Source: an uncultured Verrucomicrobiae bacterium
GTDB lineage: Bacteria; Verrucomicrobiota; Verrucomicrobiia; Limisphaerales; JAFGQR01
Length of the DNA: 64,000 bases
Assembly (NCBI GenBank): GCA_963788655.1
Contig: CAWBHS010000060.1
Coordinates: 32,001 to 96,000, forward strand
Direction: 5' to 3'
Made by a program: the position numbers and the translations under genes. Within the stretch, counting starts at the first letter, position 1, and every line of letters starts with the position of its first letter. This document shows positions 24,349-40,849 of the stretch, piece by piece. A model generated the notes under the pieces. It was given only the letters and a program-made list of their open reading frames with translations. It had not been told where the DNA came from and made no database searches.

Positions 24349-25722
24349 CTATTCGGCATCCACCACACAGCCCAATTCGCGGAGGCGCTGCAATTTGTAA
24401 ATGAGCGCCCGGCGGCTGATGCCCAGCGCCCGAGCAGTTTCGGTGCGGTTGAATTTGTTGTTTTGGAGCGCCTCCAAGATGGCTTGACGTTCGACTTCTT
24501 CGAGCCGGCGCGGGTCGGTCGGTTCGGCCGGAGTCCCCGGCGAGGGCAGGGCCCGCACCCGGTTCGGGAGATGGTCGGGCAGCACCATTTCGCCGCGGGA
24601 GAGCAACGAGGCGCGTTCCATGGCGTTGCGCAGTTCGCGGACGTTGCCGGGCCAACGATACCGGGTCAAACAGTCGGTGACCGACGAGGAAAAGCGCGCC
24701 CGGCCCTGGGTGAATTGACCGATAAAGAAGCCCGCCAGCGGGAGAATGTCTTCCGGCCGTTCCCGCAAGGGAGGCACGTTCAATTCCACCACGTTTAAGC
24801 GGTAAAACAGATCCTCACGGAAACGACCGGCTTGCACTTCTTCCTCCAGGTTGCGGTTGGTGCAGGCCAGGATGCGGGCGTTGGTTTGGATCTCGGTGTT
24901 CGAACCGACGCGTTGAAAGCGTCCATCCTGGGTGACGCGCAGCAACTTGGCCTGGAGTTTGGGCGACATTTCCGCGATTTCGTCCAGGAAAATGGTTCCG
25001 CCGCCGGCTTCCTCGAAACGGCCAACCCGATTGGCCACGGCGCCGGTGAAGGCGCCTTTTTCGTGGCCGAACAATTCGCTCTCCAACAACGTTTCCGGGA
25101 TGGCCGCGCAATTGACTTTGATCAACGGGCCGGCCGCCCGGGCGCTCCAGGCATGGATCACATCTGCCAGCACTTCCTTGCCCACGCCACTTTCGCCGGT
25201 GATCAACACGCGGCTTTCCGACTCGGCAATCAGCGAAGTATCCCGGAACAGCGCTTGCATCAGAGGACTGCGGGCAATGATGTTACCCGGCAATTGTTTG
25301 TCTTCGTTTAAACGAATCGCCGGCCCGGTTTCGAGCCCCGTGGCATGGCGAACGGACGTTAGCAACTCGTCCAGGTCAATCGGCTTGGTCAGGTAATTGA
25401 CCGCGCCATCGCGCATGGCCCCGACGGCTTCCCGAATGTCGGCGTAAGCAGTTACCAGCAGCACGGGCAACTGCGCATGGTCCTGGCGCGCCTGCCGCAG
25501 CGTTTCCAGGCCCGAGATGCCGGGCATGCGCACGTCGGAGATCATCATGCTGACCGCTTCGGAGCGCAGCGTTTCCAGGGCGCGCTCGCCGGAATCGACG
25601 GGCAGCGTTTCGAAGCCCTGGCTGCGGAGAAAGGAATCCAGCAGGCTCCGCTGGCCGGCATCGTCGTCCACGATCAGGATGCGGCGAGTGGCTGCGGAAG
25701 AATGACCGGCCGCGGCGCGCAT
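24349..25722 (-). CDS. Sigma-54-dependent response regulator (NtrC/Fis family enhancer-binding protein)
   Basis: Receiver domain (ILIVDDD, SDVRMP), Walker A GESGVGKE, ESELFGHEKGAFTGA, FLDEI, WPGNVREL and a C-terminal Fis-type HTH. Confidence 0.95.
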   Translation of the reverse strand: MRAAAGHSSAATRRILIVDDDAGQRSLLDSFLRSQGFETLPVDSGERALETLRSEAVSMMISDVRMPGISGLETLRQARQDHAQLPVLLVTAYADIREAVGAMRDGAVNYLTKPIDLDELLTSVRHATGLETGPAIRLNEDKQLPGNIIARSPLMQALFRDTSLIAESESRVLITGESGVGKEVLADVIHAWSARAAGPLIKVNCAAIPETLLESELFGHEKGAFTGAVANRVGRFEEAGGGTIFLDEIAEMSPKLQAKLLRVTQDGRFQRVGSNTEIQTNARILACTNRNLEEEVQAGRFREDLFYRLNVVELNVPPLRERPEDILPLAGFFIGQFTQGRARFSSSVTDCLTRYRWPGNVRELRNAMERASLLSRGEMVLPDHLPNRVRALPSPGTPAEPTDPRRLEEVERQAILEALQNNKFNRTETARALGISRRALIYKLQRLRELGCVVDAE

Positions 25723-25725
25723 GGC

Positions 25726-27280
25726 TCAAGCGTTGGCCGCGAGCCGCAGGTGGGTCAGGCGGAAGATGGCGCCTTGAGGCTCATTCGGCCAGGCATTGGA
25801 TTTCCCAGCCGTGGGCCAGCACGATCTGCTGCACCACCGCCAGACCCAATCCGGTGCCCTTGAGGTTGGTGGTGAAGTACGGCTTAAAGATGTCGGAACG
25901 ATGCTCCGCGGGAACTCCCGGGCCGTTGTCGCGAATCTCCAGCACGACCTCGCCGGCCTCGCCCTTCTCCGCGAGCACTTGAATCTCCCCCTGCTTGCCG
26001 ACGGCCTGGACGGCGTTGAGCAGGAGGTTGAACAGGGCCTGGCGGAGGAGCTGCTCGTCGGCCTTGATCAGCGGCAAATTGTCCTGGAGGCGCAACTGAA
26101 TGGCCTTTTCTTCGACATCGTAATTCAAGGCGCGCACCACCTCGCTGACCACGGAATTCAGCGCCACCGCCGAGCGGCGAACTTCGCGCGGCCGGGAATA
26201 GTTGATGAACTCGTTCAATTGGGCGGTGACCCGGTCAGCTTCATCGACGATGCTGTGCGATTTCGACCGCACTTCCGGCGGGGCATCCTCCTGTTTGGAA
26301 ATGATCTGGGCCAGGCCGCGGATGATGTTCAACGGATTCTTGGTTTCGTGGGCCAGGCCCGCGGCGGCGAAGTTCATTTCCTTGAGCCGCGTATTCAACT
26401 CGGCGGTGCGCACCAGCCGGAGTTCCAGGTCCGAGGAACGGTTCAAGTTGCTCCAGGCGAGTCCCAGGCCGACCACCGAAACGGACGCCAGACCACCGAT
26501 GATGAGTCGCAGCCATAAATCGCGGCCCAACGCCTCACGCTTCTTGGCGGTGGAAAAGACTACCACGAAACTGTGGACGCCTTGTTTCTCAATCGCCTTC
26601 TGGTATTCCTCCTCGCTCATCCAGAAGGGTCGCCCAAAGGGCGGGCGACCGTGACGGTTCCACCCACGCCGGCGGGGTAGGGGATCGACATTTTCAGTCG
26701 CGTTGGTAAGCACCGCTACCCCGTTGCTCACCACCTCCGTTACCTGCGGTCCTGGTTCCGGCCGGTTGGCGAAGCGACCACCATCCGTTTCCGAATCCGG
26801 CGGGCGCGGCGGTGGCGGAGGGCGATTGGCGTCACGTTCGGGCGTCCGCACGATGATGGTGGAACGGGAACCTTCCACTTCGGAGGCCACGTTCGTGCCC
26901 AGATCAACCAGATTCATCAAAGCCACGGAGCGCCGATCCCAATGCTCGCCGGTTCGGATCAGACTGCTGGTATCGAACTCGATGGGCGTGCCGGCGGAGG
27001 CGACGACTTCGCCGGCACTGTTCAACAGGGCGATGGCGTTGAGTTCACCGGGCTTGATCAAGGCCTTGAGGGCGGTTTCCATCCGGTCCATGGGAATGAC
27101 GCCAAACCGGCGTTGAGAACGCATGACCACGCCCAGGGTGGTCGAAATATATTTGGCGCTGTTGATCAACCCTTCGTCTTCGACCCGCCGGACCCGGGTG
27201 TGCTCGACGACTTGCCAGACGAGGATCATGGCCCAAACCACCAGCAGTGCGCCGTAAACCAGTTGAGTCCGTGTTTTCAT
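25726..27280 (-). CDS. Two-TM sensor histidine kinase (apparent frameshift at ~25789)
   Basis: H-box AGLAHETKNPLN, N-box NLLLNAVQA, DNGPG, GTGLGL. Removing one base restores the terminal strand CLPNEPQGAIFRL..A-TGA (25726-25728), directly before the regulator start. Confidence 0.9.
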
Positions 27281-27312
27281 AATGGGCCGCAGCCGGAGGG
27301 CCGCAGCGAACG

Positions 27313-28515
27313 CTATTTCTTCTTTTTCTCTTCGGCGGCACTGTCTTTAGTCGGCAGATCATCAAGAAAGCGATCCAGTTCCTGTTCGGTGTAGGATTTG
27401 GGCACCAATTGGAGCTGCGACCTCTCTTTGGCCGTCATCCCGGCCAACTGGGCCGGCTGTTGCACAATATGCGGCGTGAGGAAGATCAGGAGTTCGGTTT
27501 TGACGTTGTCTTTGATTTTACGTTTGAACAGCATGCCCAGGAGGGGAATGTCGCCCAAGAGCGGAACTTTGCTTTCCGATTCCGTGGCGCGGTTCTCCAT
27601 CAAGCCGCCAATCACCACCGTCTGCCCATCGGGCGTCAGCACGACGGTATCGGCGGTGCGGGAATTGATAACCGGCGCATCGTAGCCGGCGGCAATCGCT
27701 ACCTTTTGATCGGATAAATTTGAGATCTCCGGGGACACCACCATTTCCACCATGCCTTGCGAAGTAATGAACGGGGTCACCCGCAGGATAATCCCCACCG
27801 GTTGGTAGGAAACGGAGTTAATGGCATTGCCGAAGTTGTCGTAACGCACATTGGTGATCAGGGGAATTTCCTGGCCCACGGTGATGATGGCCTGCTGATT
27901 GTTGCGAGCCAGGACGGACGGGCGGGAGAGCACTTCCGTCTTGCCCGCGGTGGCGATGGCCCGCAAGGTGACTTGGAAGTCGCTGCCGAGGACTTGATAC
28001 AGCCCGGCTCCCGGCGGCGTGGGGGCGAAGCTCTGCACCGGCTGGCCGAAGGGATTCGAAACCAAGCCGGTGGAACTGGCCAAGCCCGACAGACCGAATG
28101 CATTGACGGCCTTGCCCTCGATGGAATCATTGATCCCCTGACGGGTTCCGCCCTCGATGCCGACGTCGTAACCTTTCCGATAGGTGACTTCCAGGAAGAC
28201 CACCTTGATCAGCACCTGCGGCGCCGGCCGGTCCAAGTTGGACACCACCATGCTGATGTATTTGGCGGTGTCATCGTCGGTGACCACGACCAGTTTGCGC
28301 GTTTCCGGATCCACTTGAAACGTCGCCGTGCCGAGTTCGGTGCCGCTGGGATAGTTGGCGCTGCCGGTGCCGCCGGTCGAGCCGGACCGGCGCGTGCCGA
28401 AGCCTTGCGCGGTGGCACTCTCCGTCATCCAGCCAAGGCCGGCCAGTAGCAGGGCCGCCAGGCCGATCCAAGTTTTAATGTTCTGCTGCATTCCAAGATG
28501 ATGTTTCGTTTGCAT
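27313..28515 (-). CDS. gspD: Type II secretion secretin, C-terminal half (one N-domain plus secretin barrel) with its own signal peptide
   Basis: Signal-like TWIGLAALLLAGLG..ATAQ; LDRPAPQVLIKV, LSRPSVLARNNQQA, VGIILRVTP, VVIGGLM, KVPLLGDIPLLGMLFK and ELLIFLTPHIV are secretin motifs. Confidence 0.9.
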   Translation of the reverse strand: MQTKHHLGMQQNIKTWIGLAALLLAGLGWMTESATAQGFGTRRSGSTGGTGSANYPSGTELGTATFQVDPETRKLVVVTDDDTAKYISMVVSNLDRPAPQVLIKVVFLEVTYRKGYDVGIEGGTRQGINDSIEGKAVNAFGLSGLASSTGLVSNPFGQPVQSFAPTPPGAGLYQVLGSDFQVTLRAIATAGKTEVLSRPSVLARNNQQAIITVGQEIPLITNVRYDNFGNAINSVSYQPVGIILRVTPFITSQGMVEMVVSPEISNLSDQKVAIAAGYDAPVINSRTADTVVLTPDGQTVVIGGLMENRATESESKVPLLGDIPLLGMLFKRKIKDNVKTELLIFLTPHIVQQPAQLAGMTAKERSQLQLVPKSYTEQELDRFLDDLPTKDSAAEEKKKK

Positions 28516-40665: not shown

Positions 40666-40745
40666 TTATCTTTTGTGACAGGTTGTGGTTGCACTGAATT
40701 CCAAGGCTCGCCAAACCGATCCCGGAATTACTCGGTATCTCTAGC

Positions 40746-40760
40746 GCACGTTCCATGCCA
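40746..40760 (-). promoter_or_regulatory. Sigma-54 (-24/-12) promoter of the T2SS operon
   Basis: Minus strand TGGCATGGAACGTGC: GG-N10-GC with TGGCA, about 80 bp upstream of the first start codon. Confidence 0.7.
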
Positions 40761-40802
40761 TGGCAAAAAGTGGCATTTTTATGGCTCACACCACTCCCAA
40801 CC

Positions 40803-40849
40803 TGCGCAGCCTTTGCGCAGTCACCCTCCCTTTGCGCAGAGTTTGCGCA
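40803..40849. promoter_or_regulatory. Tandem palindromic enhancer-like sites TGCGCA-N5-TGCGCA x2
   Basis: TGCGCA-GCCTT-TGCGCA (40803-40819) and TGCGCA-GAGTT-TGCGCA (40833-40849); centres 30 bp apart, upstream of the sigma-54 site. Confidence 0.7.

Follow-up and report, generated by a model that had tools for sequence, protein, structure and literature searches.

The 64,000-nt stretch analysed here (the window, G000:C60:32001-96000) comes from an uncultured Verrucomicrobiae bacterium with a genome of 8.96 Mb that is 86% complete. Its minus strand carries an operon of 15 genes for a predicted type II secretion system (T2SS) with a secretin in two pieces. With a probability of roughly 0.6, the operon is self-regulated: one sigma-54 promoter would be driven, through tandem dyads, by the kinase and activator encoded at the operon end, in answer to a signal of the envelope-stress type. 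The reading is drawn from comparison of sequences, in which promoter and dyads accompany the activator gene through the relatives and disappear together with it.

The -24/-12 site proposed in the earlier note lies at 40760-40746 on the minus strand, reads TGGCATGGAACGTGC and has the form GG-N10-GC. The two TGCGCA-N5-TGCGCA palindromes described upstream of it are present too, 30 bp apart from start to start, and the sensor kinase and GAFTGA activator named there were recovered, the latter with a receiver, Walker A, GAFTGA at residue 223 and a Fis-type helix-turn-helix (HTH). The control elements in the window are the following.

40833..40849, no strand: distal 17-bp dyad TGCGCA-N5-TGCGCA, 72 bp from the -24 TGG; predicted activator site with conserved footprint
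40803..40819, no strand: proximal 17-bp dyad, 42 bp from the -24 TGG
40746..40760, minus: sigma-54 -24/-12 promoter, predicted start near 40734; in 52/52 regulator-bearing orthologues
25726..27280, minus: sensor histidine kinase (HisKA, HATPase_c), two predicted transmembrane segments, periplasmic domain with Pro/Arg-rich insert; frame break at about 25790
24349..25722, minus: NtrC-family sigma-54 activator with receiver, AAA+ domain with GAFTGA and Fis-type HTH

Exact TGCGCA-N5-TGCGCA dyads occur four times in the genome (about 1.7 expected), and the tandem pair occurs once, at the operon. When the 350-bp upstream region was resampled 200,000 times under a Markov model, one exact dyad arose in 49 resamples and two in none. 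The dyad consensus is YG(C/A)GCA-N5-TGC(G/T)CR. Distances from dyad to promoter fall into groups of 40-43, 50-53, 61-63 and 71-76 bp, spaced by about a helical turn, with peaks at 41-43 and 72-74 bp and minor peaks one helical turn off. The operon of genome G011 is broken into P-E-F-G-H-I... and K-L-M-C-D-D-kinase, each unit with its own promoter and dyad (L097:10689 and L198:537), and the second promoter copy stands directly before gspK at the break. All features of sigma-54 activation are present, namely receiver, AAA+ domain with GAFTGA, HTH, rpoN in the same genome (contig C8) and a -24/-12 site with upstream dyads, and the activator is predicted, from co-occurrence, to bind the dyads and activate transcription.

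The window was compared with 80 loci, and after removal of 16 rows without a match to the first gene, P, and three without upstream sequence, 62 of the 81 were scored. Kinase and activator are both linked to the operon in 33 of them, the kinase only in 17, and neither in 12. All 17 genomes with the kinase only encode the activator elsewhere, at 69-78% identity except for G040 (66%). Among the 12 loci without a linked pair, G033 and G061 have both genes elsewhere in the genome, while ten have neither by these queries (completeness 92-100%). Promoter and dyad precede 52/52 operons with the activator in the genome vs 0/10 without it, counts obtained by a matrix trained on the positives and reproduced identically by a consensus-only rule without the matrix. 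A Fisher test of these counts overstates the association, since related loci do not count as independent. On the operon tree the loss label makes six changes, and 6/6 independent pairs agree (sign test p=0.031). The promoter was found without a linked kinase at two loci, exactly those of G033 and G061 with kinase and regulator elsewhere. Outside the order, four of five kinase-bearing records have the promoter (two Opitutae, Omnitrophota, Lentisphaeria), and the fifth, from Sumerlaeia, has a perfect dyad and no canonical -24; in seven records without the activator by query, promoter and dyad are absent too. This joint retention and loss makes self-control likely, and the promoter and dyads very probably belong to the encoded activator.

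The sigma-54 autoregulation claimed in the earlier note therefore holds as a link of promoter and activator, carried by the counts and pairs above, the helical phasing and the duplication in G011, but not as pure positive feedback. In 17 of the 50 kinase-linked loci the activator gene lies away from the kinase, and promoter plus dyad were present at 0/16 scanned regulator loci unlinked to the operon, so feedback through the activator gene is dispensable. The kinase lies in the operon, directly behind the secretin C-part, in 50/52 regulated loci. Pure positive feedback is too simple, and the conserved loop is that of the kinase and P. By analogy with ZraP and CpxP, P may be inhibitory within this loop.

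P has a signal peptide and a helical fold in the predicted structure (mean predicted local distance difference test, pLDDT, 82). Its LTxxQ-like end aligns weakly with Spy and CpxP, the atlas clusters nearest to it carry the automatic name Spy/CpxP (score 0.96), and a weak resemblance to the Spy/CpxP/ZraP periplasmic proteins is suggested. The Escherichia coli zraP-zraS spacer contains two 17-bp dyads, which we take to be the ZraR sites, at 41 and 72 bp from the zraP sigma-54 TGG (42 and 72 bp here), and the zraP dyad half-site is one base off the TGAGCA variant of the operon dyads. ZraR is described as binding this spacer (PMC8249747), ZraR as autoregulating and ZraPSR as an envelope stress response (PMC8249747, PMC7657598), and CpxA as inhibited by CpxP (PMC6737893). 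The operon and ZraP-ZraSR share a periplasmic accessory gene in first position under a sigma-54 promoter, a kinase with two transmembrane segments, an NtrC-family activator with nearly one target, and the spacing of the dyads. They differ in the sensor domain, which is without detectable homology, in the activator, which falls outside the ZraR clade, in the dyad sequences, and in arrangement, as the genes here are co-oriented with 12 T2SS genes inserted whereas ZraP-ZraSR are divergent. The comparison suggests that the operon works like ZraP-ZraSR, as a likeness and not a demonstrated membership, and envelope stress is the best guess for the signal, at about even odds.

Other signals precede P where the pair is missing. 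GTAAC-N16-18-SGTC was found at 8/10 loci without the activator (L005, L015, L024, L046, L050, L052, L072, L074) vs 1/52 with it, and also at L099, L100 and L193 and before the P paralogues L191 and L192; its background is 0.007 per 350 bp. It resembles the motif tGTAACc-N16-CGAA given for the extracytoplasmic function (ECF) sigma group ECF16 (PMC3420878). TTAAC-N6-TTAAC repeats lie upstream in five Chthoniobacterales-like or other-class loci (L182, L194-L197), four of which have a divergent OmpR/CpxR-like regulator, and L181 has none of the three control signals. The replacements would thus be an ECF-like promoter or an OmpR/CpxR-type regulator, which, judged from family membership, are probably stress regulators. 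In L194 and L195 an additional EF-hand-like gene precedes P, and inspection by eye shows EF-hand-like motifs inserted into the P of Sumerlaeia (L190).

The secretin is encoded by two genes.

28536..30349, minus: secretin N-part with signal peptide, Pro-rich linker, N0, three N domains, half of a fourth and a low-complexity tail; frame break at about 30060
27313..28515, minus: secretin C-part with its own signal-peptide-like start, second half of the last N domain, barrel and two C-terminal helices

The halves are separate open reading frames in 78/78 orthologous loci, a count that leaves out one locus with the C-part alone and one fused non-orthologous paralogue. They are also split in 75/75 informative named loci (five were uninformative, and a few records overlap the set of 78). 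The canonical single-chain architecture of GspD is thus absent, as N domains and barrel are on two polypeptides. PF21305, PF03958 and PF00263 are over cut-off, the nearest solved chains are T2SS secretins (E 1e-60 for the barrel, with RcpA ranked far behind at E 9e-33), and no BON domain was matched in the secretin genes. The N-part breaks off after the first strand and helix of an N domain, to which a tail of 81% G/S/T/N/Q/R is added. A signal-peptide-like start is present in 78/79 C-parts, and after it come the remaining two strands and helix of that domain. Profile alignment to E. coli GspD (5wq7) places the end of the N-part at residue 271 and the beginning of the C-part at 270; predicted alone, the C-part has a secretin fold with a beta-beta-alpha N-terminal fragment. 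From these boundaries we infer that the two halves would rebuild the last N domain in trans. Sequencing error was rejected as the source of the split, because the same split point is conserved and a second signal peptide is present.

RhcC1/RhcC2 of the rhizobial type III secretion system was the sole two-gene secretin precedent in the literature searched. There too, one gene has the N domains and the other the barrel. The barrel gene of that pair is described as derived from a Tad locus, with a BON domain and partial gene replacement (PMC3459982), whereas the halves described here adjoin each other as parts of a single GspD-type chain that is cut within a folded domain, with no BON match and no sign of a Tad origin. 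The two-chain secretin offers a natural experiment on the assembly of N3-type rings and on coupling of the shaft to GspC.

The earlier note had counted 15 co-oriented genes, and 15 minus-strand genes were found from 40665 to 24349, in the order P, gspE, F, G, H, I, J, K, L, M, C, secretin N-part, secretin C-part, kinase and regulator. The genes ahead of the secretin are as follows.

40150..40665, minus: P, 171 amino acids, signal peptide, all-helical, LTxxQ-like C-terminus; weakly Spy/CpxP/ZraP-like
38358..40100, minus: GspE ATPase with N1E/MshEN domain (Pfam, NCBIfam)
36959..38212, minus: GspF inner-membrane platform (Pfam, NCBIfam)
36426..36938, minus: GspG major pseudopilin (TIGR01710, 140.3 bits, cut-off 88.85)
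35894..36481, minus: GspH-like minor pseudopilin (TIGR01708, below cut-off)
35360..35884, minus: GspI-like minor pseudopilin (GspI model best match, below cut-off)
34569..35363, minus: GspJ minor pseudopilin (PF11612 over cut-off)
33106..34572, minus: GspK minor pseudopilin (PF21687, PF03934 over cut-off)
31643..33109, minus: GspL-like protein (weak PilM/actin-like match; position, conservation)
31116..31667, minus: GspM-like protein (below cut-off)
30346..31119, minus: GspC-like protein (NF041515, GspC_delta, below cut-off)

Seven of the 14 junctions are overlaps and six are gaps of 3-49 bp (49 bp between P and gspE, 20 bp between the secretin parts); the gspE-gspF gap is 145 bp. Across the fetched loci, the order P-E-F-G-H-I-J-K-L-M-C-D(N)-D(C) hardly varies. 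A terminator between the gsp and two-component genes had been named as a result that would speak against one unit, and none is listed on the minus strand from the secretin to the kinase and regulator, in a consensus scan that gave 24 hits vs a shuffle mean of 22.1, i.e. no excess. PF00437 and PF05157 (GspE) and PF00482 (GspF) are over cut-off, and the best NCBIfam models for the two are those of GspE and GspF, at scores under their equivalog cut-offs (605.9 vs 630 and 338.5 vs 424). GspL, GspM and GspC have weak matches (PilM, GspM, GspC_delta), all under cut-off, with fitting position and conservation. These matches mark the operon as one for a type II secretion machine, firmly for E, F, G, J and K and weakly for H, I, L, M and C, with secretion of folded periplasmic proteins as the predicted function.

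As noted earlier, no prepilin peptidase or pilotin family was matched among the 15 genes. A prepilin peptidase is encoded outside the operon (contig C24, PF01478 over cut-off), and the 86%-complete genome gave no match to the PulS/OutS pilotin family. The description of the system as self-contained has to be qualified, as an external prepilin peptidase and sigma-54 are needed. Like the canonical Gsp systems (Klebsiella Pul, Pseudomonas Xcp, Vibrio Eps, E. coli Gsp; PDB 6hcg, 5wln, 5wq8, 5wq7), the operon has GspE-M, C and secretin together. It differs from them in a secretin of two exported chains with the last N domain cut and one N domain more, in a periplasmic helical P in first and a kinase with a sigma-54 activator in last position, and in the lack of gspO in the operon and of a pilotin by the searches made. 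The same genome has a second T2SS-like cluster with gspG, gspK and a very long secretin (G000:C38, about 5000-29400) and further secretins on C7, C22, C43, C64 and C89.

The genome scan for co-regulated cargo suggested in the earlier note was negative: the operon promoter reaches a score of 59.5, against 29.1 for the next site, and the other dyad-matrix matches in this genome, with about half the score, are single weak sites or intragenic. Conserved neighbours were rejected as cargo, since no non-core family recurs in more than 6/101 loci. A strict promoter pattern matched in 99/251 genomes (ten hits with the reversed control), and 20 matches away from known operon promoters were taken for inspection. 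Several are further P promoters. At L202:5015-6451 (G202:C5), a paralogue of the secretin N-part stands alone, not followed by a C-part; it has a signal peptide of its own, tandem dyads and a sigma-54 promoter, and is possibly a swappable periplasmic shaft. L204:6217-6687 (G198:C107) is a stand-alone GspG-like gene with tandem dyad and promoter. A small cytoplasmic DUF4160-like gene has dyad and promoter in six genomes; in its family they occur at 7/30 loci (L218, L219, L223-L227) and marginally at one more, and as six of the seven came from the pattern itself, this is one independent case. Several other DUF4160-like loci have a sigma-54 site without dyad, and no gene of this kind was found in this genome. 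The simplest guess for the cargo is that its gene lies elsewhere and is not co-regulated, or that P handles a class of periplasmic proteins which the machine exports.

In the mechanism that we propose, the kinase would sense a periplasmic cue and phosphorylate the activator, the dimers of which would bind the 42- and 72-bp dyads and open the sigma-54 promoter. A single transcript would then run from P through gspE-M, gspC and the two secretin halves to the kinase and, in this operon, the activator, so that induction yields more sensor. Exported P could serve as a periplasmic chaperone and as a damper of the kinase in the manner of ZraP, CpxP and Spy, making the loop self-limiting. The secretin halves, exported apart, would rebuild the last N domain in trans, which would leave the GspC-docking N-part exchangeable. 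A wider and doubtful proposal is that this T2SS is the output arm of an envelope stress response: P heads the operon under three interchangeable regulators of stress type, and damaged or chaperone-bound periplasmic proteins would be exported through a two-chain secretin whose N-part is swappable, separately inducible and completes a ring domain in trans. If so, it would be a T2SS for envelope maintenance, not for feeding or virulence, a role not found described in the literature searched.

Several results weigh against the self-regulated, stress-responsive operon as described. Orthology to ZraS/ZraR is not supported. The sensor domain aligns with ZraS at an hhalign probability of 2.5% and has an informative Pfam match in 0/54 members, and the ZraS model NF007688 reaches 181 bits (cut-off 479) over the cytoplasmic part only. 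The best NCBIfam model for the activator is AtoC (465 bits), with ZraR at 400 vs a cut-off of 760, and in the tree the activator forms its own 99-supported clade, sister to another paralogue of the genome and not to ZraR, with weak deep branches. The C-terminal helix region of AtoC is very similar to that of the activator; the atoD promoter fails the dyad matrix. P gives hhalign values of 2.8-6.8% to Spy, CpxP and ZraP, Metal_resist was matched in 7/56 members of its family, and fold searches were uninformative for its identification (Foldseek E at least 0.44; best Z 6.6, to unrelated helical bundles). The 41/72-bp spacing is possibly generic sigma-54 geometry, as the best matrix hits at glnA are at 41-43 bp, with negative scores. 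The swap to ECF-like control is not significant by independent pairs (four opposite, two uninformative, p=0.125). Neither the dyad-promoter scan of the genome nor recurrent neighbours in 101 loci yielded a cargo. Finally, the 80 loci are a non-random sample, picked mainly for long contigs among the best matches listed.

The same self-regulated promoter could instead answer a nutritional signal such as a polymer, metal or phosphate, and the machine could export degradative enzymes encoded elsewhere, like the accessory T2SSs Txc and Hxc of Pseudomonas. We consider this rather unlikely. It agrees with the positive regulation of Txc and its cargo gene by TtsSR (PMC8623646) and with the atlas, which puts the kinase sensor region near Cache-like domains, often binders of small molecules; for stress sensing the argument is analogy alone. 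It has to do without linked cargo (the 6/101 limit) and without a co-regulated gene in this genome (29.1 vs 59.5), and against it P remains the first gene under all three types of regulator. An assembly homeostat, in which the kinase monitors subunits of the machine such as a pseudopilin in the inner membrane or unpaired secretin halves, is less probable still. PilS senses type IV pilin, and such a sensor would suit a kinase that stays directly behind the secretin C-part in 50/52 regulated loci while the activator moves, and the spare subunits among the extra targets in relatives (L202, L204). PilSR is described as controlling pilA (PMC8623646). The homeostat leaves both P and the swaps to ECF- or OmpR-type control unexplained, and the kinase has a large periplasmic domain and no more than two predicted membrane segments.

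Two further alternatives touch the extent and the identity of the system. A surface or uptake pilus instead of a machine for folded proteins is very improbable: the ATPase does score 605.9 for GspE (cut-off 630) and 560.3 for PilB, the L protein matches PilM and cargo was not found, but GspG is over its equivalog cut-off, GspJ and GspK Pfam families are over theirs, a retraction ATPase is absent from the operon, and the nearest solved secretins are GspD/XcpQ/PulD of T2SS, well ahead of PilQ. That the promoter serves P alone, as a ZraP-like unit, with the gsp genes transcribed separately, is the least credible. The 145-bp gap between gspE and gspF would allow it, but the gap between P and gspE is 49 bp, the second promoter of G011 is directly before gspK, and free paralogues of gspG and of the secretin N-part carry the promoter.

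For the self-regulated operon, each part has a precedent (TtsSR-Txc, the RpoN gsp cluster, ZraPSR, RhcC1/2), and none was found for the combination. The statement that T2SS operons rarely encode their own activator pair needs the qualification that dedicated two-component control is known. The Txc regulator is not known to be of sigma-54 type, and the Txc secretin is one chain. The Txc T2SS of Pseudomonas PA7 is described as positively controlled by TtsS/TtsR together with the co-regulated cargo CbpE (PMC8623646); the T2SS genes are likewise under a dedicated two-component system here, but no such cargo was found for the operon. The T2SS-2 gsp cluster of Plesiomonas shigelloides is likewise under sigma-54, being positively regulated by RpoN, but the available part of the paper describes for it neither a direct promoter nor an encoded activator (PMC9743648). 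The literature search, with most subscription papers and all supplements outside its reach, returned no paper on the operon, and a survey supplement could list the locus; the available part of PMC6668835 does not mention Verrucomicrobia or Planctomycetes. One activator, one motif and one promoter make a defined regulon for a lineage abundant in soil and water and almost unstudied.

A close match to the secretin C-part was found once in each of 178/251 genomes of the order, the genome of the window counted. Named relatives' records are from Limisphaerales, other Verrucomicrobiota, Opitutae and Chthoniobacterales, with single ones from Omnitrophota, Sumerlaeia and Lentisphaeria. P was found in 2/250 other genomes sampled at phylum level, so the operon is concentrated in the order and patchy outside. 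By these matches, it is conserved across a large, mostly uncultured group of Verrucomicrobia.

The assembly G000 has frame changes in 20/117 conserved genes, dnaA included. Owing to this error load, the two frame breaks in the operon span, at about 30060 in the linker of the secretin N-part and at about 25790 in the kinase C-terminus, are probably assembly errors. Real lesions are not favoured. At both positions the frame is open and unbroken in most relatives, but two, L003 and L018, have another break within the secretin N-part. Apparent pseudogenes of this assembly are to be distrusted, with about 17% of the tested conserved genes frame-changed.

Segments of low complexity rich in Gly, Arg, Phe and Asn recur on the periplasmic side of many operon proteins, among them P, the GspC tail, the secretin loops and the kinase insert. 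About 2 kb upstream of the operon (window 42857-46820, plus strand) lie a DegP/HtrA protease gene and then a CusR/CusS-like pair (below cut-offs), which are not conserved beside the operon in relatives. Convergent on the operon end (window 22110-24252, plus strand) are genes for an ECF sigma factor and a probable membrane anti-sigma factor, both apparently frame-broken.

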